This document shows positions 34,087-56,950 of a DNA stretch of 64,000 bases, piece by piece. The DNA is taken from positions 19,559 to 83,558 of the forward strand of contig CAMVGU010000012.1 in the NCBI GenBank assembly GCA_947167105.1, given 5' to 3'. The position numbers and the translations under genes were made by a program. A model generated the notes under the pieces. It had not been told where the DNA came from, ran no database searches, and saw only the letters and a list, made by a program, of their open reading frames with translations. Within the stretch, counting starts at the first letter, position 1. Each line of letters starts with the position of its first letter. The DNA is from an uncultured Selenomonas sp. GTDB lineage: Bacteria; Bacillota; Negativicutes; Selenomonadales; Selenomonadaceae.

Positions 34087-34097
34087 CCACACTCATC

Positions 34098-34868: not shown

Positions 34869-34919
34869 GGTTAAGACCTCCCAACTTAGAATGTCAAAAA
34901 TACTTCTCCATAAAGTGTT

Positions 34920-35813: not shown

Positions 35814-35828
35814 GGTCTTGTCTCCTTT

Positions 35829-36128
35829 CTATGCTGCCTCGATGGGCAGGGCTTTCTTGACATTTTCCTTTCTGTCCGGCGCTTCCCCGAAGGATACTTC
35901 CAGATTCCCAAAGCATTTTGCCTCCTTCCCGATATCGTCCAAAAGTACACTCCCTGCAGCAATTTGCAGGTATTTGCCCAGAATCCTGGCTTGGTTGACG
36001 TTGAGCGTGATATGCAGCCCCGTGGAATTACCGTTTCCTGCATACAAACCCAAATGAAGACAGCCATTCTTACCGGAAATTTCGGCCCGTATGTTCTGGT
36101 AGGCCGGATACATATGATGCGCACACAT
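35829..36128 (-). CDS. Hypothetical protein (99 aa)
   Basis: ATG at 36128 preceded by GGAGG. Tightly packed between RadC and the nuclease gene. No motif recognised. Confidence 0.5.
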   Translation of the reverse strand: MCAHHMYPAYQNIRAEISGKNGCLHLGLYAGNGNSTGLHITLNVNQARILGKYLQIAAGSVLLDDIGKEAKCFGNLEVSFGEAPDRKENVKKALPIEAA

Positions 36129-36144
36129 TTCATGACCTCCTATC

Positions 36145-36762
36145 TCAAAATGTGACAGTACCCTGTTCCTTCATGCTCCTGAACCCGTAGCGGGCTACAA
36201 TCACATGGTCGAGCAGGGGGATATTCATAATCTTGGAGGCTTTCACCAGACGCTCCGTCACGGCAACGTCCTCCTTGCTTGGCTCTGCTTCTCCCGACGG
36301 ATGGTTGTGCACGACGATGATGGATGCCGCCAGATGCTTCACCGCCTCGTGGAACAGCTCTCTTGGGTGGACGACCGATGCGCTGATGCCGCCCTTGGAA
36401 ATCATCTTGCTACTGATGATGTGATTCTTCGTGTTGAGCATCAGCAGCCAGAATTCTTCCTGCTTCGCCTCTTTTAGAAAAGCAAAGTAGCTCGCCACGT
36501 CCTCCGGCCCGTGGATGACCGTCACCGATTGCTTCGAACGGAGATCTATGCGGCGTACAATCTCGCGCAGGCAGAGCAGCCGCTTTGCTCTCGTCCTGCC
36601 TACGCCCTCGGTCTGCTCCAATTCCGATTGCGGAGCGTGGAGAACCACATCATAGGCGGTGGGGTACTCGCGCAGAAGCTGCTTGCTGGCATTTTCCGGC
36701 AGAAAGGCATCCAGCAGGTCTTTGTCGGACAGGCCGGACGGCTCAAAGATTTCATTGCACAT
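36145..36762 (-). CDS. radC: RadC-like JAB/MPN domain protein
   Basis: The C-terminal JAMM motif HNHPSGEAEPSKEDVAVT...L.DH.I and the preceding EEFWLLMLNTKN match RadC. An HhH-like segment GVGRTRAKRL is present. Start set at ATG 36762; upstream track residues overlap the previous gene. Confidence 0.85.
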   Translation of the reverse strand: MCNEIFEPSGLSDKDLLDAFLPENASKQLLREYPTAYDVVLHAPQSELEQTEGVGRTRAKRLLCLREIVRRIDLRSKQSVTVIHGPEDVASYFAFLKEAKQEEFWLLMLNTKNHIISSKMISKGGISASVVHPRELFHEAVKHLAASIIVVHNHPSGEAEPSKEDVAVTERLVKASKIMNIPLLDHVIVARYGFRSMKEQGTVTF

Positions 36763-36772
36763 GTTTCTCGCC

Positions 36773-37675
36773 TCATTTCTCGCTGTGCCTTGCTCCCGGC
36801 AAGGCTCCAAAATTTTCTTCGTATAAAGGGAGCAGTGCCCGATTGCCGTAGGTTCTTCGGTATGCTTCCAGTTCCTTGGGGTGATACAGGCATAAAAGTT
36901 CCTCATAGATGTCCATATACCGCCGAGGAAGCCTTGGCAGGATGCATCCATGCCAATCGTCCCAATCCATCGGTCTTTCTCTGTACTCGAACCTTGGCAC
37001 GGTATCTTCCGCTGCCTCGGCAACCATGTCAGCTGTCTTCCCGATGGCGGCTTCCAGTTCCTCTATATTGATATGCTCATGGAGGGTATGGGGATTGTAA
37101 TAACCGGAGGAAAGATTGACCGCAGCCACGCCCAGTTCCGGGGCAATCAGTGAGATGTCGCTGAAAGAGCCTTGGGCCGTCCGGAATCCCTTGGAGGTGA
37201 TGTATTCCTCGAACGCATCATTGCCGCAGTCATAGTAGACGGCATCCCTGCTGCCTTTGCGGTCAAGCTCTATCAGGAACTTCAAGCTGCCTAGGCTTTC
37301 CGGCAGTTTGCTCTTGGCGTGGTCTTTGCAGAAGATGTGCGCCCCTTTGCCGCCAGTCTCTTCATCGCAGGTGAACAGCAGCCACGGTTTTTGGGGCGAT
37401 TGTCCGTATATCTTGGCCAGTGCATAGACACCGCAGCGGTCATCACCGCCGATGCCCTGGGGGGACATCAGGATATTGCCGCAGGAGCTTCTGCAGATTT
37501 CCCTGACAGGCTGCTTGTGGACGGTATCGAGATGGGCAATGAGCATCACAGGAACTTCGCCTTGCACCAACAGGTAGGCTCCCTTATGGCAGACAGCCTT
37601 ATCCTCGTACCTTTGCCGGAGCATAGAAAACAGCCGTTTCTGCGTGGGCCGAAGGAAATTTTCTAACTGTATCAT
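36773..37675 (-). CDS. M28/M20-like Zn metallopeptidase homologue
   Basis: IAHLDTV..., GGDDRCG, and FTCDEETGGKGA (H-x-D ... D ... EE) resemble co-catalytic metallopeptidases. ATG at 37675 overlaps the upstream stop (ATGA). Confidence 0.6.
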   Translation of the reverse strand: MIQLENFLRPTQKRLFSMLRQRYEDKAVCHKGAYLLVQGEVPVMLIAHLDTVHKQPVREICRSSCGNILMSPQGIGGDDRCGVYALAKIYGQSPQKPWLLFTCDEETGGKGAHIFCKDHAKSKLPESLGSLKFLIELDRKGSRDAVYYDCGNDAFEEYITSKGFRTAQGSFSDISLIAPELGVAAVNLSSGYYNPHTLHEHINIEELEAAIGKTADMVAEAAEDTVPRFEYRERPMDWDDWHGCILPRLPRRYMDIYEELLCLYHPKELEAYRRTYGNRALLPLYEENFGALPGARHSEK

Positions 37676-39162
37676 GCCACCGCCTCCCCGGAGGATTCCG
37701 CTTGCTGGCAGGACACGCACAGATAGCTCCTGCTGCCATCTGCATTCCATTCCTCCCTCATCCCTGATTTGGGAAAGTATTGGTCGCAGCAGCTACAGAG
37801 GGCATAATGTTCTTCCAAGCACCGATTGCATACGGCTCTGCCGTTGCCTGCCTCCCTGACATGTCCATAGTAGTGGTAATCCCCACATTCTGCACAGCGG
37901 CTGTAATTATCGTCACGGCAAGAACTGCATACATACCGCTCATCGCCATCCTCCCCGTAAACACGAAACAGTTCACTGCAATTTTCTTCGCAGTCGTCGC
38001 ATTCCTGATCCTCATCGGGGCAGCATTCTTGACAGTAAAGCTTATAGGAGATTTCCTTGCCGCAGCAGACGCAAAGACCGTAAGTGCCTATGCAGAAGGT
38101 CTGGCAGCTATCCTTGCAGTCCTCACGGACGCTGAGCTTTGCGTCAAATTCCTTGTACTCCCAGTCACAGTAGCCGCCGAAGCCGGTTCCTGCATGAATG
38201 GTAAATCTCTCATTGCCCCAGTAGCCGAAGGTCTTCCAGAGGTTTGGAGCGTCTTCCAAGGACGAAATCTCCCTTTGCACCAAATCGCGGTAGAGAACGG
38301 ATTCCTCCTGCGCTCCGCGGGTGCCACCGGAGGTGTTGTAGAGGCGGCTCTGCAACAAAAGACCGTTGTACGGTTTGTAGGCAAAAATTTGGCGTGTGGT
38401 CTTGCGGTTGTTCAAGGTTTCGGGTACATTGGGGTCAGCCACCGTAAAGACGATGAACGTATAACTGTCCCTGGCATAGCCCGAGCAGCCGCAGTTGTAC
38501 TGGTATTCCGTGGAATTGAACGAGTGGCAGCTTGTCATGGTGTCGCCGCGCCTGTCCTCCTTGGGATTGCTCATGGTGAGGAAATGGGCGGGATTCAGGG
38601 ACACATAAAGCTTGAAGTCGATTTTTTTGGCGGAAAGCTCATCCGCAAACTGGGCATAGAGCTTCTGGAACTCGCTTCCTGCAGATTCATCGGCGATTCC
38701 CAGTGCTTGGCACAATGCCTTGAAGACCCTGCTGGGCTTCTTGTTCTGGGCGTAGGCATAGGGGGCAAGCTCCTGAATGGCAGCAATGCCGGATGCCTTG
38801 TCCTCCTGCGAACCGATAAAGAACTGCATAGCTCTGCCGAGTTTCTCGCGTTCCTCGAAATCCGACTTTTCACAAGCAGGTTTCAGCAGAGCATCGCCCA
38901 GACGGGCAACAACGTCATAGTCCGGATTGTGCGTTCTGGTTCCGTTGATGACCAGTGCGTCCAGTGCCTCGTCCCAGACAGGGGACTTCCGAAACAGCGA
39001 CCTCAATTCATCTTTTGCATAGGCGTTATCCTCTGCCAGCCTGTCCACGAAACGTGCGTCGATGTCCTTGAGCACCGCTGTCTGCCAGCTATGAGCGCCG
39101 TAGTCCTCGATGGCCTGACGGATGTTTCTCTTGGCCAGATTTATTTTCTCCTGCATTTCCAT
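37672..39162 (-). CDS. Large Cys-rich protein (multiple CxxC zinc-ribbon motifs), unknown function
   Basis: ~496 aa from ATG 39162 (GGGAGGAA upstream). The C-terminal ~130 aa holds at least eight CxxC pairs (CVCCGKE, CQECC, CDDCEENC, CSSC, CAEC, CNRC, CSCC, CVSC). Confidence 0.7.
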   Translation of the reverse strand: MEMQEKINLAKRNIRQAIEDYGAHSWQTAVLKDIDARFVDRLAEDNAYAKDELRSLFRKSPVWDEALDALVINGTRTHNPDYDVVARLGDALLKPACEKSDFEEREKLGRAMQFFIGSQEDKASGIAAIQELAPYAYAQNKKPSRVFKALCQALGIADESAGSEFQKLYAQFADELSAKKIDFKLYVSLNPAHFLTMSNPKEDRRGDTMTSCHSFNSTEYQYNCGCSGYARDSYTFIVFTVADPNVPETLNNRKTTRQIFAYKPYNGLLLQSRLYNTSGGTRGAQEESVLYRDLVQREISSLEDAPNLWKTFGYWGNERFTIHAGTGFGGYCDWEYKEFDAKLSVREDCKDSCQTFCIGTYGLCVCCGKEISYKLYCQECCPDEDQECDDCEENCSELFRVYGEDGDERYVCSSCRDDNYSRCAECGDYHYYGHVREAGNGRAVCNRCLEEHYALCSCCDQYFPKSGMREEWNADGSRSYLCVSCQQAESSGEAVA

Positions 39163-39248
39163 TGCGATTCCTCCCAACATGGAATAAGGACGGGCAAAGC
39201 ACGCGGCTCTGTCCGTCCTGTCTGACATATTTTCGTTTCATTGCTATC

Positions 39249-40376
39249 TTAGGCGTAACGTACTTCCTGCTTGCCGGGGAGCTGACGCATGGGGGTGACA
39301 TTCTGCATCGTCCTCGTATTGGCCGCCTCCGGCAGCAATGCCCTTGGCACGGGGAGCGAAAGAATCTCGCCGCCGATACGCTCCAGTTCCGTCGCCCTCT
39401 CATAGTCCACGGCGTTCTGGGAGGCCGCAGTGACTGCGTTCAGCAAGCCGTACCGGGTGCAGTCACCACTGATGAAAAGCTGACGGAAGATATCTCCGCG
39501 CTCGTTTTCCGTGAGGGAGAACCTGTCCGCCAAAAGCTCCACTTCCTGCATGGGCTGATGCTCCAAGGGAATCTGCATTGCCTCCTGCATCTTATGCACG
39601 GTCAGCATGAATTTTGCCTCATCAGCGGCGCAGCGCACCGTGTCCTGCACCTTCATGAAAAATGCCTTGTCATCCTGCGCCAAGGTTTCATCACTGTAAA
39701 GCTCATAAGCGGTATCGCCGCTTTCAATCTGCCTGCCGACATGGCGCCGCTTCTGGGAGAAGTCTTTACAAATCATGCCATTCTTACAGACGAGCCGATA
39801 AATCAGCGGCTCTACGGTCAGATGTCCAAGACCGACCTCACTGTTGGAAATGACGAACCCTGCCTGCACCACATCATTGACCGCAACCTCCGCTTTCATC
39901 TTGCGGTTGATGACCTTGAGATAAAGATGCGCCTCGGTCACTTCACAGCTTTCGATGACGCTTCCCTTCATGTCCCGAATGATGGGAAGGACTGCGGCGC
40001 AAAGCTCCAGATTGTCCAGCCTGCGGTAGCGGTCAGAGAGGAATGCTCGCACGTTTCCGTCCATGACACGGAGCATCCTCCGCTCCGGGGACTGCTGCAG
40101 CCAGTTGTTCACATTCTCATCCAAGAGGACAGGGGCTTCCGTCTGCATCCTCTGGTAATATTTCAAGGGAATGCCCAGCCGTGCAGAAATCTGCTGATGG
40201 GCGAAGGGATTCACCCCGAATTCCAGCAACTTGTTTCCTGTGGTGAAGGTAATCCGTGACTTTCCGTCCTCCGTAGCAAAAGCAAGATGGCGCGTGTCTG
40301 CTACAAAGTCCTGCCTTGCTGCCCTCTGCCGCTGAAGCTCCGTTCCCAGTGCTTCCAATGTCTTTCCCTGTTTCAT
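39249..40376 (-). CDS. DUF932-family (phage/plasmid-like) protein
   Basis: 375 aa. N-terminal pattern ...F.NPFAHQQISARLGIPLKYYQRM...LL..NVN.WL...R.LR...G..RAFLSDRY..LDN is what I recall for DUF932/TIGR03299 proteins of ICE and plasmid leading regions. Assignment is from memory only. Confidence 0.65.
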   Translation of the reverse strand: MKQGKTLEALGTELQRQRAARQDFVADTRHLAFATEDGKSRITFTTGNKLLEFGVNPFAHQQISARLGIPLKYYQRMQTEAPVLLDENVNNWLQQSPERRMLRVMDGNVRAFLSDRYRRLDNLELCAAVLPIIRDMKGSVIESCEVTEAHLYLKVINRKMKAEVAVNDVVQAGFVISNSEVGLGHLTVEPLIYRLVCKNGMICKDFSQKRRHVGRQIESGDTAYELYSDETLAQDDKAFFMKVQDTVRCAADEAKFMLTVHKMQEAMQIPLEHQPMQEVELLADRFSLTENERGDIFRQLFISGDCTRYGLLNAVTAASQNAVDYERATELERIGGEILSLPVPRALLPEAANTRTMQNVTPMRQLPGKQEVRYA

Positions 40377-40412
40377 GTTGATCTGCTCCTTTCGATGTCT
40401 CGCTTGCAGGAC

Positions 40413-40445
40413 GCAAAAACGCCCCGAACCAAAGCGGTTCGGGGC
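40413..40445 (-). terminator. Terminator closing the AT-rich five-gene operon (bidirectional shape)
   Basis: gccccgaac / gttcggggc stem. On the minus strand it is followed by GTTTTTGCG. Confidence 0.75.
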
Positions 40446-40596
40446 AAGTTTTTGCGATCCTTTTTATGTTCCCTATGCATGGGTTCGCAGTGCATCTGCG
40501 AAAACCTGCTAGGTATCATTGGTATAGTATATGGTTGAAATGGGGAAGTTTGACGAATGAAAAATAACTGTACTAATTTTTTACACAGCGTCAAAG

Positions 40597-41103
40597 CTAA
40601 AATTCTTGAATGTGTTCAATATCTTTTTCGTCTCTATGGATTAATTTCATATCTACTTGATATGGTGTTTGAAGTCCGACATCTTTATTATTTTCCTTAT
40701 TGGGGGCTTGATATTCCTCCAGTTTACACTTGCCGAATACCTTTATTCGCGGCTGTAAGCCTTTTGCTCTCAGTTCATTATATAAATCCTGACACTCAGA
40801 ATTTATTATATTCTCTTGAATGATAAAATGATCAACATGTTTTTCTGTTCCGTCAGGAAATTCTAGTTTGACATTCTTTAGGCAGGTCGCCTTATCTATA
40901 TTTTTAACGACTTTTATTTTTTCTCTGTCTCCTATATTATCTGCTTGGCTTATATTGGAGTTTTTCATTTTTGCCAAGCCTGTATTATTCGCAAAATATC
41001 TATCTTTTGTCTTTCCATGATCGTTGTATGGCGAAAATTCTCCCGTGAAATGGCATTCTTGTCCAGCATACGGGATGATATTTTTTCTGTTTTTCTTCTT
41101 CAT
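40597..41103 (-). CDS. Hypothetical protein (168 aa), gene 5 of the AT-rich operon
   Basis: AT-rich ORF, Lys/Asn-rich, no TM segment, no motif recognised. 39 nt downstream of the Sel1-repeat gene. Confidence 0.55.
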   Translation of the reverse strand: MKKKNRKNIIPYAGQECHFTGEFSPYNDHGKTKDRYFANNTGLAKMKNSNISQADNIGDREKIKVVKNIDKATCLKNVKLEFPDGTEKHVDHFIIQENIINSECQDLYNELRAKGLQPRIKVFGKCKLEEYQAPNKENNKDVGLQTPYQVDMKLIHRDEKDIEHIQEF

Positions 41104-41142
41104 AACAACACATTCCTTTATTTCTATAGAAATTTAATACAA

Positions 41143-43224
41143 CTAAACTGGATTGCTTTCAATCCACTTCTTTGCATCATCATCGCCTTTTTCAGCGGCC
41201 TTTTCATACCATGAATGTGCTATGTTTTTATCAACTGCAACACCGTACCCATTCAAATACATTTCACCAAGATTACGCTCTTCATAACCATTGGCTGATC
41301 CGGCTGCAATGCCTTTTTGGTAATATGCGATTGCTGTTTGATAATCCACATCAACTCCATGCCCATATCTATAAGCCCATCCCAAATTACCTAAGGATGA
41401 AGGAAATTTATGCCTTTCTCCGATGTGCCACCAGTTTAAGGCTTCTTCGTTATTTCCATTTCCTTCTTGGCTATAATGACGAGCTATCTGATTTATGGTA
41501 TAATCATTGAATTGATGATGTTCAAACGCTTTTTTATACCATTCTATACCATAGGAGATATTTGCTTCGACACCTAATTCACCCCTAAAATAAATGTCGC
41601 CTAAGTATAGCATAGCTCTTCCATATCCCATCTCGGCGGCAATTTTAAAATATTTTTCCGCTAATTTTCCATTTTGTTCTACGCCTTGCCCAATGTAATA
41701 ACGCTTAGCTATGCCGTGATAGGCACGAAAATATCCCTGTGCTGCTGCCATTTCAAAGTAATTTAAGCCTAAGTTGTAATCAGATTCTTTTTTTCCTTCA
41801 GTAGCATTGCCAAGGTTAAAGTAATATAAAGCAAGTTCGTACTGAGCAAAAACATCATCTTGATTTGCCTTAGTCATCAATTCCTCGCAGAAGTTGAATG
41901 CCTCTTTCCAATCAATTACTTGCAATAAAGCACCATGAACTGCTGAACAGCAATAGCCCTCATCCAAATTCTGACGGATAAGTTCCTTAGCATGTTCTAA
42001 ATTACAGTCTACATCCAGACCGTCATCATAAATACGCGCCAACATGTACCTTGCCTCCACATTTCCTGCTTCGGCAAGTTCTTCTAAGAGAGGAAGTGCT
42101 TCCGTAATCTTGCAATTAAGGAACAAAGCCTTTGCTTTTTGTGCCTTTTCTTTTTCAAGTTTCGCATACCTAAGCTGTTCCAAGTTATAGAGCATTTCCA
42201 GTTCTAATTCATAATAAGGGATTTCGGTTTCCAGATGTACGTTTTCTTGTTGCAACAGATAACCATCTACCATTTGATAAGCAATATCTGTATTGGAAAG
42301 GTCAACACCGTTGCGCTGTAAAAGTCGTGCAGTTGTTTCTGTGATATATCGTTCCTCTGTACTTAGTCGATTCATTTTGCTAAGGCCAACGGATAATATT
42401 TCGTTATTCGTGGCAAGTTCATTCACACGAAGTTCCGGGCTGATAAGATGTGAAAACAGCTCCTTGTTTCCGCCAACCTCACGGACAAAGTTCTCATAGC
42501 TCATAGTTGCCTTGGGGTCAAGTCCGATGGTTCCCATGGCAGCCTTTAGCAAAAGCAGGTCAGAGGCACGCCATTCACCTTTGGTTATGCTGTAAAAATC
42601 ATGTGCCATGCAGACCAGTTTTGTAACATCATCAAGTTCCTGATACTCTATGCCGTTGTACATTTGGTATTCAATGGAATTTTGCCAATTCAACAGGTCT
42701 ACATTTCGCTCTAGGCGGTCTATCCGTGTTGCAAGCTGCATGATGTCGGCACGGGTACGGCGGAAGAAGGTTTGCATCGTGCCGCAAATGTCTCGCATCG
42801 TCCCATAGACGTTATTGATTTCTTGCTCCACGGCAATCATAGATGCGTTTAGCTTGTTGTTGACGGCTGTAATCAATTCGAAACTCATCAAGTTTTGCTC
42901 AGCCAGCTTCTGCAATGTTTGCTGTGAGGCATATTGCGCCCTAGCCAAGTTCCGGTCTATATCAGCTTGCAACCGCCTATTTTTGCCCGTAATATTATTC
43001 CAGAAACGTTTTAACATGCCTTGTGAGGCTTTCTGCTCTACAAGGTTTTCGCTTGCAGTCAGTGCAGCGGTGCTCTCGAAAACAAGACGATTTATTTGGT
43101 AGCGATTGCCCTTGTGACGTTCGATTATACTGTCAATTTGACGATCTATTTCTGTTTTTTCCTCTGACAACAGTAAACTGTCGTCCACACACATCAGCTC
43201 GTATTTCAACTTTCTCAGCTCCAT
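41143..43224 (-). CDS. Coiled-coil N-domain + Sel1-like repeat (SLR/TPR) protein, gene 4 of the AT-rich operon
   Basis: 693 aa. The N-terminal ~340 aa is heptad-rich. The C-half has about eight Sel1-type repeats (e.g. AEAGNVEARYMLARIYDDG, AAAQGYFRAYHGIAKRYYIGQGVEQN, AAEMGYGRAMLYLGDIYFRG, SLGNLGWAYRYGHGVDVDY, GSANGYEERNLGEMYLNGYGV, AAEKGDDDAKKW). The ATG overlaps the upstream gene by 10 nt. Confidence 0.8.
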   Translation of the reverse strand: MELRKLKYELMCVDDSLLLSEEKTEIDRQIDSIIERHKGNRYQINRLVFESTAALTASENLVEQKASQGMLKRFWNNITGKNRRLQADIDRNLARAQYASQQTLQKLAEQNLMSFELITAVNNKLNASMIAVEQEINNVYGTMRDICGTMQTFFRRTRADIMQLATRIDRLERNVDLLNWQNSIEYQMYNGIEYQELDDVTKLVCMAHDFYSITKGEWRASDLLLLKAAMGTIGLDPKATMSYENFVREVGGNKELFSHLISPELRVNELATNNEILSVGLSKMNRLSTEERYITETTARLLQRNGVDLSNTDIAYQMVDGYLLQQENVHLETEIPYYELELEMLYNLEQLRYAKLEKEKAQKAKALFLNCKITEALPLLEELAEAGNVEARYMLARIYDDGLDVDCNLEHAKELIRQNLDEGYCCSAVHGALLQVIDWKEAFNFCEELMTKANQDDVFAQYELALYYFNLGNATEGKKESDYNLGLNYFEMAAAQGYFRAYHGIAKRYYIGQGVEQNGKLAEKYFKIAAEMGYGRAMLYLGDIYFRGELGVEANISYGIEWYKKAFEHHQFNDYTINQIARHYSQEGNGNNEEALNWWHIGERHKFPSSLGNLGWAYRYGHGVDVDYQTAIAYYQKGIAAGSANGYEERNLGEMYLNGYGVAVDKNIAHSWYEKAAEKGDDDAKKWIESNPV

Positions 43225-44933
43225 TCTTCGGAAAGCATCTGTCGTATCTCGTTTTTCAAAGTCGTGCGCTCCTTCATAATCTTCTGTCTTTCAACATGAT
43301 ATGCTCTCTCGTCTCGTTTTGCCTGTTGCAATGTCCGTTCTGTCTGCATCAAGGTTCGATTCATCCTTTGCACAGGGCGCATGATTTTACCTATTTGGTG
43401 GGGGTGAAGGTGATACTTACTGAGAAGTTCCTGCTTCTTTGCAAGGAAGTTTTCTCTTTGTCGTTCCATATTTGAGGAAATATCTTTTCCGTCGATGACA
43501 TTCTCCAGCACACGACGCATCCCGTCTGTCCATTCTTCCGGGTACGGCATCTCTATGAACTCTCGTTGCATAGCAATATCGTTATAGCGTTCCTTGATGA
43601 AATTATGTGCCCATCCTGCGTAGTCGCCACTGGCATACATGTCTTTCAGTGCATCATAGTCTATATCTTCCTTAATAGATTCCATTAAGAGCTCGGCTTC
43701 GTTCTGAGTGAGGAATTCGTGATCCAATACTTTTCCAAGTTCTGCTTCAAAAATCCGCAGCATTTTCTTGGCATCATCTTCGATAACTGCATCCAGAACA
43801 CCTTTCGTAGCTGCACCGCCAAGCGAACCTCCTGCAAACGAGCCTATAATACCTCCCACAAAAGCGCCAGCAGCTGTGCCGATGATAGGCACAAAAGAAC
43901 CGGCAGCCGCTCCCGCCGCTGCTCCGCCTACCCATCCTGCTGCTCCACCCGCAACAGCTCCGGCAGTAGTCGTTACATTCTTAAATAGTTGGCCGCTAGA
44001 AATACGGCCTTTAAACATGTCGATAGCATCCTTGCCGGAGAGTATGACCACCGTGATGGCTGCCGTGATGATATTATTACGAAGCAGCTTGGACACATTG
44101 TTCATCGCAGCCGCTCCGTAGATATTTTCCCCTGTTTGCAAACCATTGGCAATATATCCAGATACCTTGCTCCCCATAGCTTTAGTCAGCAAATCCGTCC
44201 CACCTCTCAGACCTGCCGTAATGCCCATACGGGTTGCTTGGCTGGCTAAAATTGTGGACAAAAAAGAAACACCGCCGACCTTCAATCCAGATACGACAGC
44301 TCTTTCTACAGCCGTTGAAAAATCATCGCCATTCCATACTGATAGCGCAAAAGTTATAACTGCTGATACGCCGACTGCACTTGTGGCGATAATCACGCCA
44401 TTGACTGCATCAAACTTCAATGATTCAATCGTTCCGGCCTGTGCAATGGCCTTGGCTTCCTCATAGGTATATGCACCACGACGTATGATGTCTTTTGCTT
44501 TGCTGGGGTCTGTGATGCCATCTACTTCGCCATTTTTGATGCGGCGCTCCATAGCCGATACCGCAGAATCATACATGTCAGAAGGAACCTCAATTTGCAT
44601 TGGTTCCCCTGATTCAGTGTAGTAGCGGAAATGTCCGTCTTGAAAGCACTCTGCTACGCAAGCAGAGCCAGATGCACAGTATTTAGATTGAATCATTTGG
44701 CCGTCAACGATGCGATCGGCACCATTGGCAGCATTATCATCCCCGAGAATTCGTGCATCACGACCATTCATGTAGTCATTGAGGTGGTCTGCACGTTCCG
44801 CAGCAAAACCATGGCCTTGTCTGGCATGGAACTTTTCCATGCCAGAAGTTGTTTCGCTGGAAATACGGTTGGCGTATTGAACTCCTACCGCTTCGGACGA
44901 AGAATGTGAATTTCGGTCGTTCATATTTATCAT
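43215..44933 (-). CDS. Multi-TM protein with a glycine-zipper segment, gene 3 of the AT-rich operon
   Basis: 572 aa. Soluble N-domain (FHARQGHGFAAERADHLND...). Hydrophobic segments from ~aa 185. A long Gly/Ala zipper (GAVAGGAAGWVGGAAAGAAAGSFVPIIGTAAGAFVGGIIGSFAGGSLGGAA). A charged coiled-coil tail. Confidence 0.75.
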   Translation of the reverse strand: MINMNDRNSHSSSEAVGVQYANRISSETTSGMEKFHARQGHGFAAERADHLNDYMNGRDARILGDDNAANGADRIVDGQMIQSKYCASGSACVAECFQDGHFRYYTESGEPMQIEVPSDMYDSAVSAMERRIKNGEVDGITDPSKAKDIIRRGAYTYEEAKAIAQAGTIESLKFDAVNGVIIATSAVGVSAVITFALSVWNGDDFSTAVERAVVSGLKVGGVSFLSTILASQATRMGITAGLRGGTDLLTKAMGSKVSGYIANGLQTGENIYGAAAMNNVSKLLRNNIITAAITVVILSGKDAIDMFKGRISSGQLFKNVTTTAGAVAGGAAGWVGGAAAGAAAGSFVPIIGTAAGAFVGGIIGSFAGGSLGGAATKGVLDAVIEDDAKKMLRIFEAELGKVLDHEFLTQNEAELLMESIKEDIDYDALKDMYASGDYAGWAHNFIKERYNDIAMQREFIEMPYPEEWTDGMRRVLENVIDGKDISSNMERQRENFLAKKQELLSKYHLHPHQIGKIMRPVQRMNRTLMQTERTLQQAKRDERAYHVERQKIMKERTTLKNEIRQMLSEEWS

Positions 44934-44958
44934 TCCTATTCGTATCGGAAAAATGTTT

Positions 44959-45621
44959 TTATTCGGTTATCCATTTGGAATGAGTTTCGACAGTTATATC
45001 GCTCATAGTGCCTTCACACGTTTTCACATTTCGGGAGTCTCTGACAACATCTCCTGAAAATAGTGGTGTTATTTCCTTGCCGTCCATAACGCCGTTTAAG
45101 TTAAAAGTAACGATATCCTGCTGATAAGGAGATTCTATATAGTTTGTATAAACCTCAACTGTAGCAAATAGATTGTTTTTTTTCTCGTAATCTGAGGTAA
45201 CATACGCTATTTTTTCTCCTTTTTTAACTTGAATTTTGTTATCAAAATAAACATTATCATCTCTTGAACTTTTTATTATTTTAGTATAGTAATTGTTGCA
45301 TTCAGCTATAAGACGTGGATCATCAAAAGTTGAAAACTCAAAATGGGCTATGAATAGCCGAATTCCAAGTTTTATCTCCTTATCATTTGTGAATGTGAGA
45401 TAGATACCATAGTAATATATACCCCCCTCACAAATTCCGTCAAAAGGAGCGCGAATTCCCCCTCTTGGCTCTTTTATGAATACTTGACGCCTATTATACA
45501 TATTACTTCCTAATAATCGAGAATCCCAATTTTTTGTGTTATAATATCCATCCATGTCAGTTCTTGGTACAAAAGTACCTGAAACTGGAAAATTATCTAT
45601 GTAAATGTTTCTGATTTCCAT
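44959..45621 (-). CDS. Hypothetical protein (220 aa), gene 2 of the AT-rich operon
   Basis: AT-rich ORF, Tyr/Asn-rich, no TM segment or signal peptide. No firm motif. Confidence 0.55.
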   Translation of the reverse strand: MEIRNIYIDNFPVSGTFVPRTDMDGYYNTKNWDSRLLGSNMYNRRQVFIKEPRGGIRAPFDGICEGGIYYYGIYLTFTNDKEIKLGIRLFIAHFEFSTFDDPRLIAECNNYYTKIIKSSRDDNVYFDNKIQVKKGEKIAYVTSDYEKKNNLFATVEVYTNYIESPYQQDIVTFNLNGVMDGKEITPLFSGDVVRDSRNVKTCEGTMSDITVETHSKWITE

Positions 45622-45660
45622 TATGACATGTGCCGCTCCTTATAAATTACATAATAAATA

Positions 45661-45858
45661 TTATTCTTTCAAATCATCTTCATCATCGTGCAACATTTTC
45701 GCAATATCATCAGGTGTATTTTCAATGTATCCTGCTTCATATCCACATTCAGGACAGTAAATTAAACTGGAATAGTCCATGCCGTGTTCTATCTCCAGTT
45801 GGGCACCGCATTTAGGGCATTTCTGTGGAAATTTCTTTGAACTCACATTTTGTTCCAT
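45661..45858 (-). CDS. Small zinc-ribbon protein (65 aa), gene 1 of the AT-rich operon
   Basis: CPKCGAQL...x16...CPECGY. ATG at 45858 preceded by AAAGGAGA. The track ORF extends upstream to 45957. Confidence 0.6.
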   Translation of the reverse strand: MEQNVSSKKFPQKCPKCGAQLEIEHGMDYSSLIYCPECGYEAGYIENTPDDIAKMLHDDEDDLKE

Positions 45859-45947
45859 TTTCTTATCTCCTTTTACAATAAATATACAGGAAAAACATGT
45901 GATTCTATCCGCTTCCTTTGATATCAAACTCCGAACTTCCACACAGC

Positions 45948-46100
45948 TTATTTTCACAGGCTTTTACGGACAGCGGCTGCCACCACATCGACTTTTCCAC
46001 ATCATTGAACGACACCAAAAGGGACATATCAATTTGCAGTCCGTCTGCAATATCAAGGAGCATCGGCACGGACAGCGTATCGTTATACTTTCGACTGTCC
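45948..46100 (-). pseudogene. Truncated duplicate of the XRE-regulator gene 3' end (remnant)
   Basis: ~143 nt is about 97% identical (4 mismatches) to 49027-49170. In the XRE frame it reads ..DSRKYNDTLSVPMLLDIADGLQIDMSLLVSFNDVEKSMWWQPLSVKA.., with a TAG immediately upstream. The HTH part is therefore missing. Confidence 0.8.
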
Positions 46101-46126
46101 TAAGTATAAAGCGGATGATTGGCAAA

Positions 46127-46149
46127 AAGGTTGCCTGGCAGGCAACCTT
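46127..46149 (-). terminator. Hairpin terminator (bidirectional shape) downstream of the flagellin-DIP1984 unit
   Basis: aaggttgcc / ggcaacctt stem with a 5-nt loop, flanked by A- and T-runs. Confidence 0.6.
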
Positions 46150-46364
46150 TGAAAAAATTTCCAATGATATTCCCACAACCCACCCTCGCGTAAATGTCAG
46201 TACCCGGTAGTAAAAATGAACCGTAAAATGTGCATTTGTAACAATGAGGGCTGACAATGACGGCTTTACGCCGTGCGCATTCGCCCCGAAATGCTTTTTG
46301 TGGGTGCAACTGTTTACCCTGTTGCCGGGCCGGTACTCGCCCATAAAACGCTACACCAAAATAG

Positions 46365-46817
46365 TTATTGCAATTCCGTCAGCCAGTTCAACTGCTGAAT
46401 CCTAGAGTCGAGGCTTCGAAGGTCTTTGGACAGTGCGTCCAGTTCCTTTCGCTTCTCCGGCACGGACACTGTGCTGTGAACCTTGATTTCCGTATATGCA
46501 GAGCGTTCCACCAATTCGCTGGCTCTGTCGAGGAAATCGCGCATAAGGCCGACTTTCTTCTGCAAACACTCGCGCTTTGCCAAAAGCGCGGTAAGGGTTT
46601 CGCCGTTGTCCATGGTCGCAGAATTGGTCATGTTAATCCGGAGAATAAGTTCCTCAAGCCGCAAAATCATGCCGTCCATCTCTTGTAAGAGTTCTGCCGG
46701 ATTCTCCACCGGCTTTTCACCCTCCTGCACTTTGGCGTTATTAAGCAAACGCCCCCGTAGCTGTGAGAGTCGCTTTTGAATGTCTGCCCTCTCCTGCAGT
46801 GCTTCCGCTAATTTCAT
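46365..46817 (-). CDS. DIP1984-family (septicolysin-like) protein
   Basis: 150 aa. MKLAEALQERADIQKRLSQLRGRLLNNAKVQEGE...RINMTNSAT...NWLTEL matches my memory of the DIP1984 family consensus. GGGGGAA lies upstream of the ATG. Confidence 0.75.
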   Translation of the reverse strand: MKLAEALQERADIQKRLSQLRGRLLNNAKVQEGEKPVENPAELLQEMDGMILRLEELILRINMTNSATMDNGETLTALLAKRECLQKKVGLMRDFLDRASELVERSAYTEIKVHSTVSVPEKRKELDALSKDLRSLDSRIQQLNWLTELQ

Positions 46818-46887
46818 AATCTATTCCCCCCTGATGTCGTGAGCAATCCGCTCCAAAATGTGTCAAGATATATCATTATTGGTTTCA

Positions 46888-48972
46888 TCACAGCAATCCC
46901 AGCACATCGCCTGCATTTTGATTTGCCTGTGCGAGCATAGCCTGTGCAGCTTGTGCCAAGATGTTGCTCTTGGTGTAGTTCATTATTGCCTTGGACATAT
47001 CAGCATCGCGAATTACGCTTTCGGAATGGATTGCATTTTCCTGCGCAATAACCAGATTGTCAATGGTTTCTTCCAGTCTCATTTGATATGCACCCATACG
47101 CACATTTTCATTCAGTGCATATTCTACTGCCAAATCCAATTTTTCCAGTGCTTCTCTAGCTTTTTCCTGTGGGTCAACGGCAGCATCTTCCAATCCCATG
47201 GCTTTTGTTCGCATATCATTGATGTAAATACGAAGATGCTGGTTAGCCTTTGGCCCAGTGTGGATGATAAGAGGATTTCCCTCAAAAAGTTTATCATCGT
47301 AAATAATTACATCTTCACCACCTGAAACGCTATCGTCACCATCATCACCGGGAAGGGCATCATTACCGCCGGGAATCGTATCGTTTCCACCAGAGATTGT
47401 ATCATCGCCATCTGCGGCAGTATCATCAACGCCGTATATTTCTTCATCACCGCCACTAAGTGAACCTATACCGCCATTATAGAAAACAGGAGGTGGACTG
47501 TCAGCTTTCCAAAAGCTATATGTATCTGTCTCAATGTCGTGATGCAGTATCACGGAATGATGGTCTTTCACTAAAGCTACGTCAGTAGCGGAGGGATCAT
47601 TCTCTCCCTTTGCGTCTTGTATTCCTCTAAATATATTTTGCAAAATTTCCGATTGTGTCTGCACATCTCGGCCAATGCCAACCACATATACCTGCGAATA
47701 TTTGTAATTACTGGGTGTATCCGCTGGTGGAGTGAACAATACCCCCGTACCAGCAGGACGATTTGTTTCCAATTTTATACTTACAAACTGGTAACACCCC
47801 TGACATAAAATGGAAATACTCTGATTATTGAGGTCGATTGGCAAATTAACTGGATTACCGTTTACTGTAGCGTTGGAAAAGTCTATATCCACAGTATATC
47901 CCGTAACAGTGGTACTGAGTGGTTCACCCGTTTGGCTTATAACCAGTTTATCATTTTCATCCTGTTCTATACGGCAGGGAACAAAAACCCCAAGGTCATT
48001 CTTAACATAATACGTTGTAGACGAATTCAATGTTGGATTATTAGTATTAAAAGTAAGGCTCATATACGAACCAGAAGAGCCAACTGGCAAATATAATGAA
48101 GGCTCAGAATGATATGTAACAGTCCCCATATTTGGTAATGATGATCTGACAAAACTTAATGTACGTTGCGTCAAAGGGTAGGGCCATGACTGTACTGATG
48201 TAGAACGTGGACTATATCCTCTTACTCTTCCGCTATATGCCCATGCATTTGCTGGAGGGAAAAGGCCCTGTATTTGATTTTCTTTTGCTGGGGCAGTCGG
48301 TTCAAGACTGGGTGTGTCGCTTGTTGCGCCAAGCAACCTCAGGGAGCTACCGACTGCATTTGTGGAAAAACCGAACACCCCTCCTTTCTTGCTTGCAAAA
48401 GAAGCAGAAAAAAGTACATCTGTGGAATTTTGCGGAATTATATTGTTTCCCTGCGTCAATGCCCCATTAAAGGAAGAGGCCAATAGCATCGGTCTACTTA
48501 GTTCATTTACTCCCTTACCATTCGAGGTACCACCTTCCCTGTACCAGTACCTTCCATCCAGCAAAATCTTTCCGTTGTAGTTGGTAGTGGATGCCAGTTC
48601 ATCAATCTCTGCCATGCGAGATGAAAATTCTTTCTGCAAGATTTTTCTGTCTTTCTCTGAATTGTGGTCGTTGAGAGAGTTCAGAGCCAGTTCCTTCATT
48701 GTCCTAAGCGAGTCGATGATTCCCTGAATACCGCCCTCCGCAGTTTTCACTAGAGTAATGCCTTTCTGGGAATTCTCGATATCCTGCCCCAAAGCGCGCA
48801 CCAAAATCCGAAGTTTCTCCGATTGTGCATATTCCGATGCGCCATCCGTAGCTCCGGTTATTTTGGTGCCGGTGGAAACCTTTTTCAAGTCCTTGGCCAA
48901 CTTATTGGCATTTTTGTTGAGTTCTCCCAAAGCTAACGCCGCGGCGTTGTTATTCGCTACTGTCATCGCCAT
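46888..48972 (-). CDS. fliC: Flagellin homologue with a very large, divergent central region (~694 aa)
   Basis: Conserved N-terminal D0/D1 (MAMTVANNNAAALA...LVKTAEGGIQGIIDSLRTMKELALNS...YNGKILLDG). Conserved C-terminus (NVRMGAYQMRLEETIDNL...ESVIRDADMSKAIMNYTKSNILAQAAQAMLAQANQNAGDVLGLL). Start set at ATG 48972 (AGAGGG upstream); the track starts at 49026. Confidence 0.88.
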   Translation of the reverse strand: MAMTVANNNAAALALGELNKNANKLAKDLKKVSTGTKITGATDGASEYAQSEKLRILVRALGQDIENSQKGITLVKTAEGGIQGIIDSLRTMKELALNSLNDHNSEKDRKILQKEFSSRMAEIDELASTTNYNGKILLDGRYWYREGGTSNGKGVNELSRPMLLASSFNGALTQGNNIIPQNSTDVLFSASFASKKGGVFGFSTNAVGSSLRLLGATSDTPSLEPTAPAKENQIQGLFPPANAWAYSGRVRGYSPRSTSVQSWPYPLTQRTLSFVRSSLPNMGTVTYHSEPSLYLPVGSSGSYMSLTFNTNNPTLNSSTTYYVKNDLGVFVPCRIEQDENDKLVISQTGEPLSTTVTGYTVDIDFSNATVNGNPVNLPIDLNNQSISILCQGCYQFVSIKLETNRPAGTGVLFTPPADTPSNYKYSQVYVVGIGRDVQTQSEILQNIFRGIQDAKGENDPSATDVALVKDHHSVILHHDIETDTYSFWKADSPPPVFYNGGIGSLSGGDEEIYGVDDTAADGDDTISGGNDTIPGGNDALPGDDGDDSVSGGEDVIIYDDKLFEGNPLIIHTGPKANQHLRIYINDMRTKAMGLEDAAVDPQEKAREALEKLDLAVEYALNENVRMGAYQMRLEETIDNLVIAQENAIHSESVIRDADMSKAIMNYTKSNILAQAAQAMLAQANQNAGDVLGLL

Positions 48973-49300
48973 AGCTGCCGCCCTCTTTCTCATGCGATTC
49001 TGAACTGACGCATATTTTATTTTCACAGGCTTTTACAGACAGCGGCTGCCACCACATCGACTTTTCTACATCATTGAACGACACCAGAAGGGACATATCA
49101 ATTTGCAGTCCGTCTGCAATATCAAGGAGCATCGGCACGGACAGCGTATCGTTGTACTTGCCGCTTTCGATGCGAGAGAGGACGCTTTGGCTGATATGTG
49201 CAAGAGTTGCCAGCTCTTCCTGCTTTAAGTCGCGCAAGGTTCGATAGTAGGCGATTTTTGCTCCGATTTGCTTAAGCAATATCTTTTTTCGTACATCCAT
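48950..49300 (-). CDS. XRE-family HTH transcriptional regulator
   Basis: IGAKIAYYRTLRDLKQEELATLAHISQSVLSRIESGK is a classic Cro/C1 HTH. ATG at 49300 with AAAGGAGG upstream. The 3' end overlaps the flagellin start region. Confidence 0.85.
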   Translation of the reverse strand: MDVRKKILLKQIGAKIAYYRTLRDLKQEELATLAHISQSVLSRIESGKYNDTLSVPMLLDIADGLQIDMSLLVSFNDVEKSMWWQPLSVKACENKICVSSESHEKEGGSYGDDSSE

Positions 49301-49380
49301 GCCGTAACCTCCTTTCTGGCTATAGTGACCCATAGAATATTATCTCAAAACAGCTTCATGTCGGTCAAACATACCTGCAC

Positions 49381-49414
49381 CTAAATACGAATACTAACTT
49401 TCTAAATACGAATA
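49381..49414. promoter_or_regulatory. Two 13-bp direct repeats (candidate operator) between the two XRE genes
   Basis: ctaaatacgaata at 49381-49393 and again at 49402-49414. Start-to-start spacing is 21 bp (two helical turns). Lies in the 117-bp gap upstream of the XRE gene at 49300. Confidence 0.45.
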
Positions 49415-49417
49415 TCG

Positions 49418-49678
49418 CTAAAATTTGAAATCATCCTCTGCCAATAGTGCCCTTGGAGGGACACCCAACGCCTCCGCAATGTCAAGGAGCGTAATCACCG
49501 CAAAACTTTCAAGGTCGGCACGCTCGATCTTGCTCATGTAGCTGACGCTGATGCCGATGTTTCGTGCCAGTTCCGCCTGTGATAGTCTCCGTTGCTTCCG
49601 ATAATAGGCAATCCGGTTCCCGATTCTTTGGAATGTGGCCTTGTGCCGTTCCAATGCCCCCAATGACATCCCCTCCAT
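49418..49678 (-). CDS. XRE-family HTH transcriptional regulator
   Basis: IGNRIAYYRKQRRLSQAELARNIGISVSYMSKIERA. The start is uncertain: in-frame ATGs at 49678 and 49669, and the track starts at 49828. Confidence 0.75.
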   Translation of the reverse strand: MEGMSLGALERHKATFQRIGNRIAYYRKQRRLSQAELARNIGISVSYMSKIERADLESFAVITLLDIAEALGVPPRALLAEDDFKF

Positions 49679-49864
49679 CCATAGTATACATGGCTTATGC
49701 ACCATGTATCGCGCCCGTATCCTGCGGAAATTGTCAATCATAGTGCCAGTAAATGAGTAAGCCTTTGTGGTTACAGTATAGCGGGGCTGAAATTCGCAGG
49801 GTTGTCCATTTTGGACAAAAAATAGCACTTCCCGGCGATGGGAAGTGCCGCTTGCGTGTGAAAT

Positions 49865-51253
49865 TCAGTCTGTTTCGGGGTTAATCCATATATAGTAGGA
49901 GAAGGAACTGCTTTTTAAGTGAGGCGTGTCCGAGGAAAAGGAAAGCCAAATATATTTCCCGTTTCTTTGCAGCATCCTACCGCCCAACGGTATCGCGATT
50001 TGAGCGGTACTGCCCGGAAGAATGGCAGTATTGTAGTGTTCCATTGTAGCATTTTCATTTATGGCAGCCTTCAAAGTGGCTGCTTCTATGGGGACTCCGC
50101 TATGGTTTTCAATCGTGAGGACGATTTCCCAGTCGGAGGGGAAATACTTAGTCAGCATGGGCGTTGTTCCTGCTGTTTCCCAGGCTTCCCATTCGGCTTT
50201 TGGTACGGTGATATTGTACTTTCCTCCAGCACCGAGATTTTCGTTGCCCACAGCAAGGGACAGTCCAATATCCTCCGATGACAATTTTTTCGGTTCCTTT
50301 GCCACCTCTGGTATTGGCTGTGGTATAATGGGGACGTTCTCTTGGGTGGATGGAGATTCTGCCAAACCCGGAGAATCCGACGATACCGATTCGTTGGAGG
50401 GTTTCGGCTCTTCCAAAGGTGTTTCGATATGGGCCGGGGTATCTGTCCTCTGTTCCTCAGGGGACTCCGGCGGCAGAGCCTGTTGCCGCATCCAATATCC
50501 CACTCCGAAAATGACACAGGCAACGAGAATGAGGGCAGCTATCCGTAACGGGCGGCGGTAGGATGGACGAAGCAGGGCAGCTTTCAACTCATCTGCGTTT
50601 TGGTAACGGTCTTTGGGGTCTAACGCCGTGCATTTATCAAGTACCGCTGTCAGCCAGCCGTGATTGCCTTCCTCCAAAAGCTCCTTCATGGTCACGCCCA
50701 GGGCATAGATGTCGCTTCTTGCATCTGTCTGTCCGAAGCCATACTGCTCCGGCGGAGCGTAGCCAGAGGTGCCGAAGGCTCTGGTGTCCGGCGAGTTTTC
50801 CCTGTGCATTTCCCGCGCTACTCCGAAATCCAAGAGCCTTGCCTGTCGCTCCCCTTGTAAGATGATGTTGGAGGGCTTGATGTCACGATGGATGATTCCT
50901 GCCTGATGGAATGCTGTCATGCCATCCAGAAGCTGAAGCATGATGTTTTTGACTTCGGCAGGGGAAAATCGTCTGCCAGTCTCGATTTCTGCCGACAGTG
51001 TATTGCCGCTGACGTATTCCTCGACTACCCATGTCGTACCGTCTTCTTCTGCCGTAAACAGGATGCGAGGCCAAAGCGGGTGAGCTATCTCTTTCAGTTT
51101 TCGGAAGGGAAGCCCTGTGGTACTGAGCTGCTTGACGACAACAATCTGCCCTGTGCCATCCTTGGCGAGCCATATACTGCTATGCTCTGTTTTTTTGAGC
51201 AGTTCGACCTTTGTATATTCCGCTTTTATATAGGATGCTACCCGTTTGTCCAC
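49865..51253 (-). CDS. Hanks-type Ser/Thr protein kinase with a TM and an extracytoplasmic C-domain
   Basis: Kinase subdomains (VVVKQL, HRDIKPSNIIL, DFGVAR, GTSGYAPPE). TM LRIAALILVACVIFGVGYW. A Pro/Ser/Glu linker and a ~150-aa C-domain. GTG start with GAGGGGG upstream. Confidence 0.9.
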   Translation of the reverse strand: MDKRVASYIKAEYTKVELLKKTEHSSIWLAKDGTGQIVVVKQLSTTGLPFRKLKEIAHPLWPRILFTAEEDGTTWVVEEYVSGNTLSAEIETGRRFSPAEVKNIMLQLLDGMTAFHQAGIIHRDIKPSNIILQGERQARLLDFGVAREMHRENSPDTRAFGTSGYAPPEQYGFGQTDARSDIYALGVTMKELLEEGNHGWLTAVLDKCTALDPKDRYQNADELKAALLRPSYRRPLRIAALILVACVIFGVGYWMRQQALPPESPEEQRTDTPAHIETPLEEPKPSNESVSSDSPGLAESPSTQENVPIIPQPIPEVAKEPKKLSSEDIGLSLAVGNENLGAGGKYNITVPKAEWEAWETAGTTPMLTKYFPSDWEIVLTIENHSGVPIEAATLKAAINENATMEHYNTAILPGSTAQIAIPLGGRMLQRNGKYIWLSFSSDTPHLKSSSFSYYIWINPETD

Positions 51254-51310
51254 ATTGTCACCCCCTCAATCACGATTTTGTATTACTTCATTATATCATA
51301 GCAGGAAAGG

Positions 51311-51748
51311 ATGGGAAGGATGCCCGCCAAGGATACGGATGAACTTGTCCACGAATTGAAAAGCTCTCGCAGTATGGCAGCCTTCCTGCAGGAGAATCGG
51401 GATGAAATGGTGTCGCGCTCCCTGCCAGAGTACCTCGCGCAACTTTTAGCGGAGAAAGGTATGTCCCAGAAGGAGGTCATCAAGGCATCGGGGCTTTCGG
51501 CAAGCTACGCCTGTCACATCTTTTCCGGAGAACGCAGCACCACCCGCCCTAAAATGCTGGCCATTGCCCTTGCCATGAAGCTGACCGTGGAGGAAACACA
51601 GTACCTGCTCCATTATGCAGGACTGCCGCAGCTTTACGCCCGTGTGCCGTGGGACAGCATCATTATACATGCCATCAGCCATCAGAAATCGGTCATTGAT
51701 ACCAATCTGCTTCTGGACGATTTTGGAGAGCGGCCTTTACTTGCCTGA
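51311..51748 (+). CDS. HTH-domain regulator, divergent from the kinase gene
   Basis: LPEYLAQLLAEKGMSQKEVIKASGLSASYACHIFSGER resembles an XRE-like HTH. Followed by a ~70-aa C-domain of unknown function. Confidence 0.65.
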   Translation: MGRMPAKDTDELVHELKSSRSMAAFLQENRDEMVSRSLPEYLAQLLAEKGMSQKEVIKASGLSASYACHIFSGERSTTRPKMLAIALAMKLTVEETQYLLHYAGLPQLYARVPWDSIIIHAISHQKSVIDTNLLLDDFGERPLLA

Positions 51749-51948
51749 ACCTTGCTGTGATGGCCGAGGGAGGACATGCCCAATCCGGGATATTCCTTCC
51801 AACGGCAGTCGGATTCTCCATGCTCCATAACAATAATATATACCTGAAGAATTTCAGTTTAGCATAGACGGTCTTCCATAATGGGAAACATCCTTTTCTG
51901 TCCTCAAAAACCACAACATAGTGGTAATGAGGAAGGGAGGTGATTCCA

Positions 51949-56938: not shown

Positions 56939-56950
56939 AGTGAATTCAAG

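Follow-up and report, generated by a model that had tools for sequence, protein, structure and literature searches.

In the window analysed here, a 64,000-nucleotide (nt) stretch of a contig from an uncultured Selenomonas sp. (CAMVGU010000012.1), an AT-rich cassette of five genes includes two overlapping ones, which encode a 572-amino-acid (aa) membrane protein of the YeeR family and a 693-aa partner ending in Sel1 repeats. Judged from sequence comparison across genomes, these two genes are the conserved core of the locus and are functionally coupled. It is, in our estimation, about an even call that they constitute a two-gene, modular conflict system resembling abortive infection, probably directed against phages, whose membrane-attacking effectors would be swappable. 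In the mechanism proposed, the 693-aa protein would serve as a cytoplasmic hub, the conserved N-terminal helices of which (a domain termed ccN) would hold the C-terminal tail of the 572-aa protein, and its fast-evolving Sel1 end would recognise a trigger, most plausibly a protein of a phage or of another invading element. Binding of the trigger would release or activate the 572-aa effector, which may then harm the membrane of its own cell through its glycine (Gly)-zipper helices, an outcome of the abortive-infection type. The soluble YeeR_C domain of the effector could possibly cut or bind nucleic acid on activation.

The coupling of the two genes is best followed through the tail. YeeR-like genes are patchily distributed across phyla, being present in ~395 of 185,579 species genomes. 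At species level, the genomes gave 78 loci with a YeeR-like gene; the tail was present in all five that have a ccN neighbour and in none of the 73 without one, so that tail and ccN mark the same five loci (Fisher p = 4.7e-8). A metagenome search seeded with ccN recovered 44 loci with a full adjacent YeeR-like gene, which lay upstream of ccN in 38 and downstream in 6, and no locus lacking YeeR-like DNA was seen among the metagenome loci flanked on each side by 1.8 kb or more. In three database proteins (P0285, P0383 and P0370), the YeeR module and ccN are joined in one chain. An earlier annotation of this DNA, made from the sequence alone (hereafter the first-pass annotation), had proposed that the two proteins work together, and this is borne out by the strict co-occurrence, the fusions and the translational coupling. 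In a Clostridiales metagenome-assembled genome (L011, ~8000-13800), one YeeR-like gene was observed between two ccN paralogues of 567 and 683 aa.

Could such a pair simply stabilise the island that carries it? A toxin-antitoxin-like addiction pair, with the YeeR-like protein as toxin and the Sel1 protein as a stoichiometric inhibitor, would sense no invader. The two genes do overlap and are translationally coupled: the 572-aa gene ends in gaa gaa tgg agc tga, the 693-aa gene begins with atg gag ctg, and ATGGAGCTGA is common to both, as the first-pass annotation had read. The element is mobile, and ~25 loci (L129, L142, L162 and L166 among them), all of one human-gut lineage, show an orphan-antitoxin pattern in which an intact partner stands beside an internally deleted yeeR pseudogene. 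The remnant comprises residues ~32-104 and the last few tail residues, with a stop codon, and sister contigs keep the full gene of 582-592 aa. Even so, an addiction pair appears rather improbable to us: the 693-aa partner, with its large and fast-evolving repeat domain, far exceeds the needs of an inhibitor, most YeeR-like genes have no partner, and the partner is encoded downstream of the putative toxin in 38 of the 44 loci.

The conflict-system reading, and in particular the swapping of effectors, draws on loci in which another gene stands beside ccN, and these loci are the most telling part of the analysis. Three plasmids of Bacillus cereus encode a ccN homologue (34% identity over residues 21-349, E = 2e-56) whose C-terminus is not of the Sel1 kind. 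A gene for a patatin-like phospholipase precedes it by 13 nt, and a type III CRISPR-Cas locus adjoins this patatin-ccN pair. In Peptacetobacter hominis, a gene matching the Pfam family Patatin is followed by one for a ccN-Sel1 protein (48% identity). When the tail of YeeR-like proteins was turned into a hidden Markov model (HMM), the last 55-60 residues of both patatins matched it (E = 4e-12 and 6e-9), and no other non-YeeR full-length protein was matched among 2458 locus proteins. Since it is found on YeeR-like and patatin proteins, the tail is regarded as a shared module travelling with whichever gene adjoins ccN. We infer from this distribution that the tail docks onto ccN.

Two further arrangements widen the range of candidate partners. 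In Moraxella, a ccN-like gene is followed by a dynamin-family gene, and on a Cronobacter plasmid the order is WYL, a 470-aa Gly-zipper protein and a ccN-like protein. Aligned by hhalign, the zipper module of the 572-aa protein matched the Cronobacter 470-aa protein with a probability of 90%, in the zipper only. A YeeR_C domain in this protein was considered and rejected, the family HMM giving no match and the resemblance of the N-terminal domain being by eye only. A broader proposal, to which we give somewhat less than even weight, is that ccN defines an undescribed family of immune hubs, in which variable repeat sensors would be coupled through the tail to interchangeable membrane effectors (YeeR-type, patatin and possibly dynamin).

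By sequence similarity, the 572-aa protein belongs to the YeeR family. An identical database protein (P0001) bears a precomputed match to PF27347 (YeeR_C), a Pfam entry that postdates the Pfam copy scanned locally, so that the local scan of the 572-aa protein was empty. Its residues 26-138 are 50% identical to residues 393-508 of E. coli K-12 YeeR (BLASTP, E = 2e-30), and residues 27-461 are 34.8% identical to full-length enterobacterial YeeR (838 aa, from a Klebsiella plasmid). An exhaustive search found the YeeR_C domain in 935 clusters at 50% identity; homologues of the 572-aa protein number >2000, and one relative occurs on 214 contigs. Most of 146 representatives keep the module formed by residues ~10-480, and residues 481-572 mark a subfamily. 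A Pfam scan of the 63 representatives bearing extensions revealed fused Sel1 repeats in 8, and PARG, ADP-ribosylglycohydrolase, TerD or TerB domains in some others. In P0333 and one other of these 63, N-terminal PARG and ADP-ribosylglycohydrolase domains were observed, a hint that part of the YeeR-like family may be connected with ADP-ribose signalling.

Two features of this protein escaped the first-pass annotation, which had described a soluble N-terminal domain and a coiled-coil tail: the former corresponds to the catalogued YeeR_C domain, modelled here with a restriction-endonuclease-like fold, and the latter to a putative docking module common to patatin phospholipases. In the AlphaFold2 (AF2) model of residues 1-185, a confident core (41-167; predicted local distance difference test, pLDDT, ~90) has the order alpha-beta-beta-beta-alpha-beta, with helices (H) and strands (E) at H40-55, E60-62, E74-76, E79-83, H89-94 and E113-116. 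Residues E46, D73, R74, Q82, K84, Y104 and E115 are invariant or nearly so in YeeR_C; E46 falls in the first helix of the core, D73-R74 in the second strand, Q82-x-K84 in the third strand and E115 in the last strand. Foldseek returned a best E of 0.03 (PspGI) in the PDB and of 0.03-0.15 in BFVD, with none below 1e-3, and its weak lists consist mostly of PD-(D/E)xK proteins (PspGI, CdiA-CT, VRR-NUC, Mus81, T7 endonuclease I-like proteins and Holliday resolvases). No nuclease relative of the domain was found by PDB profile search. Taking the modelled core and its conserved residues together, we consider it likely that YeeR_C adopts a restriction-endonuclease (PD-(D/E)xK)-like fold.

Beyond this domain, the protein holds hydrophobic segments at residues 172-203, 212-230, 282-307 and 334-375, and small-xxx-small runs at 324-344 and 352-372 within the hydrophobic helices, in agreement with the Gly-zipper membrane region described earlier. 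A helical region lies between the Gly-zipper region and the C-terminal tail. Database labels of homologues point the same way, being 'glycine zipper family protein' for the Lactococcus homologue (NCBI) and 'YcfJ' for relatives (JGI). Matches to phage tape-measure proteins (PHROG, E down to 3e-11), and to an S-layer protein and SlyB in the PDB, were confined to the Gly/Ala-rich hydrophobic region; they were taken as compositional and rejected as identities.

The partner combines two parts with different histories. Its Sel1 repeats (PF08238) were matched with E = 1.5e-33 and 114.4 bits, against a cut-off of 30.7, in 5 self-scoring stretches, and a profile of the 693-aa protein matched solved Sel1 proteins with E down to 5e-78. 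The ccN domain has 534 homologues and no Pfam family, and the C-termini that follow it are Sel1, TPR or unassigned. For ccN, Foldseek and PDB profile searches yielded no relative among solved or predicted structures, all matches falling in the Sel1 part. In the structure model, residues 1-186 form long helices of low confidence, and residues 187-370 a compact helical domain (pLDDT ~90). The first-pass reading of this protein, a coiled-coil half followed by Sel1 repeats, therefore stands for the repeats and not for a plain coiled coil. No hydrophobic segment is present in the protein. Sequence identity drops from the first 170 residues toward the repeats, from 82 through 61 to 49% against L176 and from 61 through 36 to 24% against L002. 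A flagellar link through MotX (NCBIfam, 8e-9) was rejected, as the match covers the Sel1 repeats only and the relatives have no flagellin.

A conflict system is favoured over a housekeeping role because the hub is conserved, its sensor-like end is variable and the membrane-acting effectors are interchangeable, and because regulators of the stress or defence type, mobile carriage and frequent loss alleles accompany the pair. Among the regulators, those of the WYL type are encoded ahead of the pair in several gut lineages and, more widely, stand upstream across several lineages and phyla; on a Lactococcus conjugative plasmid, a WYL gene is upstream of the 572-aa homologue, near an Abi gene. A custom WYL HMM placed WYL upstream in 9/63 genome loci, and WYL is the commonest Pfam family beside YeeR-like genes (8/109). 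The association is thus recurrent, in a minority of loci. A divergent XRE gene lies upstream in 19 loci. The 133 neighbour clusters include, by raw presence, a type III restriction enzyme, a retron reverse transcriptase, BnzB, PDC-M09A/B, PDC-S01 and WYL, and transposases also neighbour the pair. Phages seldom carry the family: two ccN loci were found among 2.9 million viral contigs, and one YeeR-like gene occupies a moron position after an endolysin gene.

Several observations weigh against a conflict system of this kind. No ccN partner accompanies 73 of the 78 genome YeeR-like genes, so the YeeR family can act alone, and many of the metagenome loci derive from one gut lineage. The fusions P0285, P0383 and P0370 could be frameshift artefacts, given that the two genes overlap. 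The putative effector has 4 or 5 hydrophobic segments or membrane passes, and the nuclease-fold assignment relies on non-significant Foldseek matches (best E 0.03). None of the five proteins of the cassette has a significant HMM match in PADLOC-DB v2.0.0, in keeping with the earlier remark that no named system fits the gene set, and no description of a YeeR_C/Sel1 pair or related system was found in the literature searched. In addition, many neighbours of the pair are housekeeping genes, as at a locus preceded by rplM-rpsI.

The last point bears on a role in membrane maintenance or remodelling, in which the hub would recruit membrane-active proteins during envelope stress, in the manner of Ter, PspA or bacterial dynamins. 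Such a role would suit several loci set amid housekeeping genes, including the one after rplM-rpsI; the YeeR-like, patatin and dynamin partners all act on membranes, fusions of YeeR-like proteins with TerB and TerD exist, and TerB is also encoded beside YeeR-like genes. It is nevertheless judged unlikely, since the genes are patchily distributed (~395/185,579 species genomes) and travel on islands, plasmids and a phage, one gut lineage frequently has deletion alleles, and variable repeat ends, WYL regulators and effector swapping are typical traits of conflict systems.

The cassette itself was examined with regard to an earlier proposal that all five genes form one defence module. Its physical description was recovered faithfully: the five co-directional minus-strand open reading frames (ORFs) are spaced by 39, 25, -10 and 39 nt in order, a hairpin followed by a T-run closes the operon, and the block (40413-45950) has 41.1% G+C, in comparison with 52.3% on the left (33200-40400) and 47.7% on the right (45951-53000), the chromosomal part (1-31000) having 57.5%. 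The 220-aa and 168-aa genes have the lowest G+C of the block (33.6% and 33.7%). The truncated XRE copy reported beside the block is real as well: a 161-nt repeat core (45930-46090) shares 93% identity with the 3'-terminal part (48999-49159) of the intact XRE gene at 48950-49333, and a stop codon closes the reading frame upstream of the truncated copy. The features are collected in Table 1.

Table 1. Features of the five-gene cassette and its boundary, in positions of the window
Feature	Position	Strand	Basis or remark
Truncated XRE copy	45909-46099	minus	191-nt direct repeat of 48978-49168, 87% identity
Zn-ribbon gene, 65 aa from ATG	45661-45858	minus	mechanical ORF begins at GTG, 45957
220-aa orphan gene	44959-45621	minus	ORF list
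572-aa YeeR-family membrane protein gene, putative effector	43215-44933	minus	precomputed PF27347 match and BLASTP
YeeR_C soluble domain, residues ~31-170	44424-44843	minus	AF2 core and conserved residues
Membrane region with Gly/Ala zipper, residues 172-375	43809-44420	minus	hydropathy and zipper runs
C-terminal helical tail, residues 481-572, putative docking module	43218-43493	minus	co-occurrence and tail HMM
693-aa partner gene	41143-43224	minus	Sel1 match and conserved N-domain
ccN helical N-domain, residues 1-370	42115-43224	minus	conserved in 534 homologues
Sel1 repeats, residues 371-693	41146-42114	minus	Pfam and PDB profile matches
168-aa orphan gene	40597-41103	minus	ORF list
Intrinsic-terminator-like hairpin at operon end	40446-40420	minus	12-bp stem with 8 G-C pairs, then TTTTT

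The conservation of the five genes as a unit did not hold up. A five-gene system, in which the Zn-ribbon, 220-aa and 168-aa proteins would be necessary components, could be read from the tight spacing, the single terminator and the presence of the same five genes together on two other contigs, but these contigs are near-identical relatives (100% and 92% DNA identity). In L176, where the 572-aa relative is 82% identical, the pair is flanked by different genes and none of the three small genes is present; no homologue of any of the three was found in the ~160 loci related to the pair, the 220-aa and 168-aa proteins included, and the G+C of the orphan genes is unlike that of the pair. Such a system is accordingly judged very unlikely, and the three small genes, being absent from L176 and without homologues in those loci, are on sequence grounds lineage-specific additions outside the system.

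Individually, the small genes offer few leads. In a search of 5.8 billion clusters the 220-aa protein had only 2 matches, itself and a relative 71% identical, and neither it nor the 168-aa protein, whose cluster has 2 members, has a family or PDB match. In the 92%-identical cassette of L175, the 220-aa protein (293-955) is the 71% identical one, against 95-96% for its neighbours and 89-96% for the other cassette genes overall, which indicates that it evolves much faster than its neighbours. The 65-aa CxxC...CxxC Zn-ribbon has generic matches only, LysW-like at 27.4 bits (cut-off 27) and Lar-like phrog_6422 at E = 1e-5.

A 25.6-kb island inserted at a tRNA-Thr gene carries the cassette as cargo. 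This element is delimited by the tRNA-Thr gene (31309-31384), a 47-nt copy of whose 3' end (31338-31384) recurs at 56893-56939, and by a tyrosine integrase (31917-33146). A second repeat of 26 nt was observed just inside each island end (31448-31473 and 56712-56737) and may represent arm-type sites of the integrase. The island contains RadC/JAB, DUF932, the cassette, DUF6847, flagellin, two XRE genes, a Ser/Thr kinase, Fic and a relaxase fragment. The 462-aa kinase (49865-51253) matches the PD-T4-6 model with E = 6e-39 and has XRE genes on both sides; by this match, it may be a second defence gene of the same element. The mobile setting near a kinase described previously is therefore correct, the cassette lying in an integrated island with a PD-T4-6-like kinase. 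Outside attR are IS66, an OLD/PtuA-like ATPase and a split type III DNA methyltransferase; the latter occupies two overlapping ORFs (61684-62646 and 62577-63380), whose products match the two halves, N and C, of a single PADLOC model, and it is probably frameshifted.

Other observations concern the immediate surroundings of the cassette. The segment 46100-48977, bracketed by the 191-nt direct repeats, holds the DUF6847 gene and a 712-aa flagellin gene, and the repeats look like an insertion or recombination scar that parted the XRE gene from the cassette. Flagellin was accordingly rejected as a partner of the cassette: it and DUF6847, lying between direct repeats of 161-191 nt, look separately inserted. 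The DUF6847 protein adjoins the pair both here (46365-46817, upstream) and in L176 (4378-4830, downstream), with 87% identity, and in L176 a DUF5677 protein comes after it; its presence in both loci suggests a common variable hotspot of one island family. Between the DUF932 and RadC genes lies a 518-aa protein (37672-39228) with a Cys-rich C-terminal half rich in CxxC pairs, for which no match was found in Pfam or PADLOC. YeeR-like genes were observed a few genes from DUF932 and RadC/JAB in this island (36145-40376), in E. coli K-12 (L009) and on the Klebsiella plasmid (L173), the order in enterobacterial islands being GTPase, Ag43/Cah, YeeR, IrmA, DUF905, DUF932 ... RadC. This proximity is a common position in otherwise unrelated elements.

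A role in the transfer or establishment of mobile elements, such as entry exclusion or leading-region anti-defence, would accommodate the DUF932 and RadC genes that lie close to YeeR-like genes in this island and in those of enterobacteria, together with the match of one YeeR-like representative to TraT. Many loci, however, lie outside recognisable transfer regions, the pair is also found on non-mobilizable plasmids and at plain chromosomal sites, and the TraT match may merely reflect Gly-rich composition. We therefore regard this role as highly improbable.

If the pair is a defence system, it would represent a new family common in human-gut Firmicutes. It would also provide the first functional lead for the recently catalogued YeeR_C domain and for yeeR, an E. 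coli island gene to which no role has been assigned. The principle suggested, that one hub docks different membrane-damaging effectors through a common C-terminal tail, is directly testable, and the tail and hub could become a compact and swappable protein-docking pair for engineering.

Among known systems, lambda RexAB is the classical two-protein abortive infection system, in which a cytoplasmic sensor controls a polytopic membrane protein and membrane integrity collapses. The logic proposed for the pair is the same. No relationship in sequence between the pair and RexAB was found, no search aimed at it having been made. RexA is not known to have a repeat domain, nor RexB a Gly-zipper or nuclease-like domain; the pair differs in having a repeat domain, a Gly-zipper and a putative nuclease-like domain. 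In CBASS, CapV is a patatin-like phospholipase effector activated by a cyclic nucleotide. The replacement of the YeeR-like gene upstream of ccN by a patatin gene parallels the effector swapping of known defence systems. Unlike CapV, the pair is accompanied by no cyclase or nucleotide-binding domain, and its control would be exerted by protein-protein docking. Eleos (LeoA/LeoBC) was considered in view of the one ccN-like gene that adjoins a dynamin-family gene; an identity with it was rejected, since PADLOC links the 572-aa protein with LeoBC and the 693-aa protein with LeoA at non-significant values only (E ~0.08) and neither protein has a GTPase domain.

At the level of domains, YeeR_C has the same order of secondary structures as PD-(D/E)xK nucleases, with its E, D and QxK at canonical positions in the model. 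It differs from them in that the third motif is QxK and the domain is always membrane-tethered, and no structural or sequence match reaches significance. SlyB/YcfJ-type and DUF1269 Gly-zipper proteins share with the 572-aa protein small-xxx-small repeats in two adjacent hydrophobic helices. Both kinds of Gly-zipper protein are small and carry no YeeR_C or tail module, and the 572-aa protein matched DUF1269 with E = 0.021, below the cut-off. The closest counterpart is E. coli YeeR, found in the CP4-44 prophage and in full-length form (838 aa) in pathogenic E. coli and on a Klebsiella plasmid, with which the YeeR_C domain is common. Full-length YeeR also has a Gly-zipper and a helical module and is island-borne near DUF932 and RadC. 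Unlike the 572-aa protein, it has a polytopic N-terminal extension of ~390 aa, no C-terminal tail and no ccN/Sel1 partner. The yeeR gene shares a transcript with flu and irmA, and in K-12 it is truncated (PMC6480617). The cataloguing of YeeR_C, the glycine-zipper label of relatives and the logic of a sensor with a membrane effector were already known, and what appears to be new, as judged from these comparisons, is the components of the pair and the arrangement in which the tail would dock the effector onto the hub.

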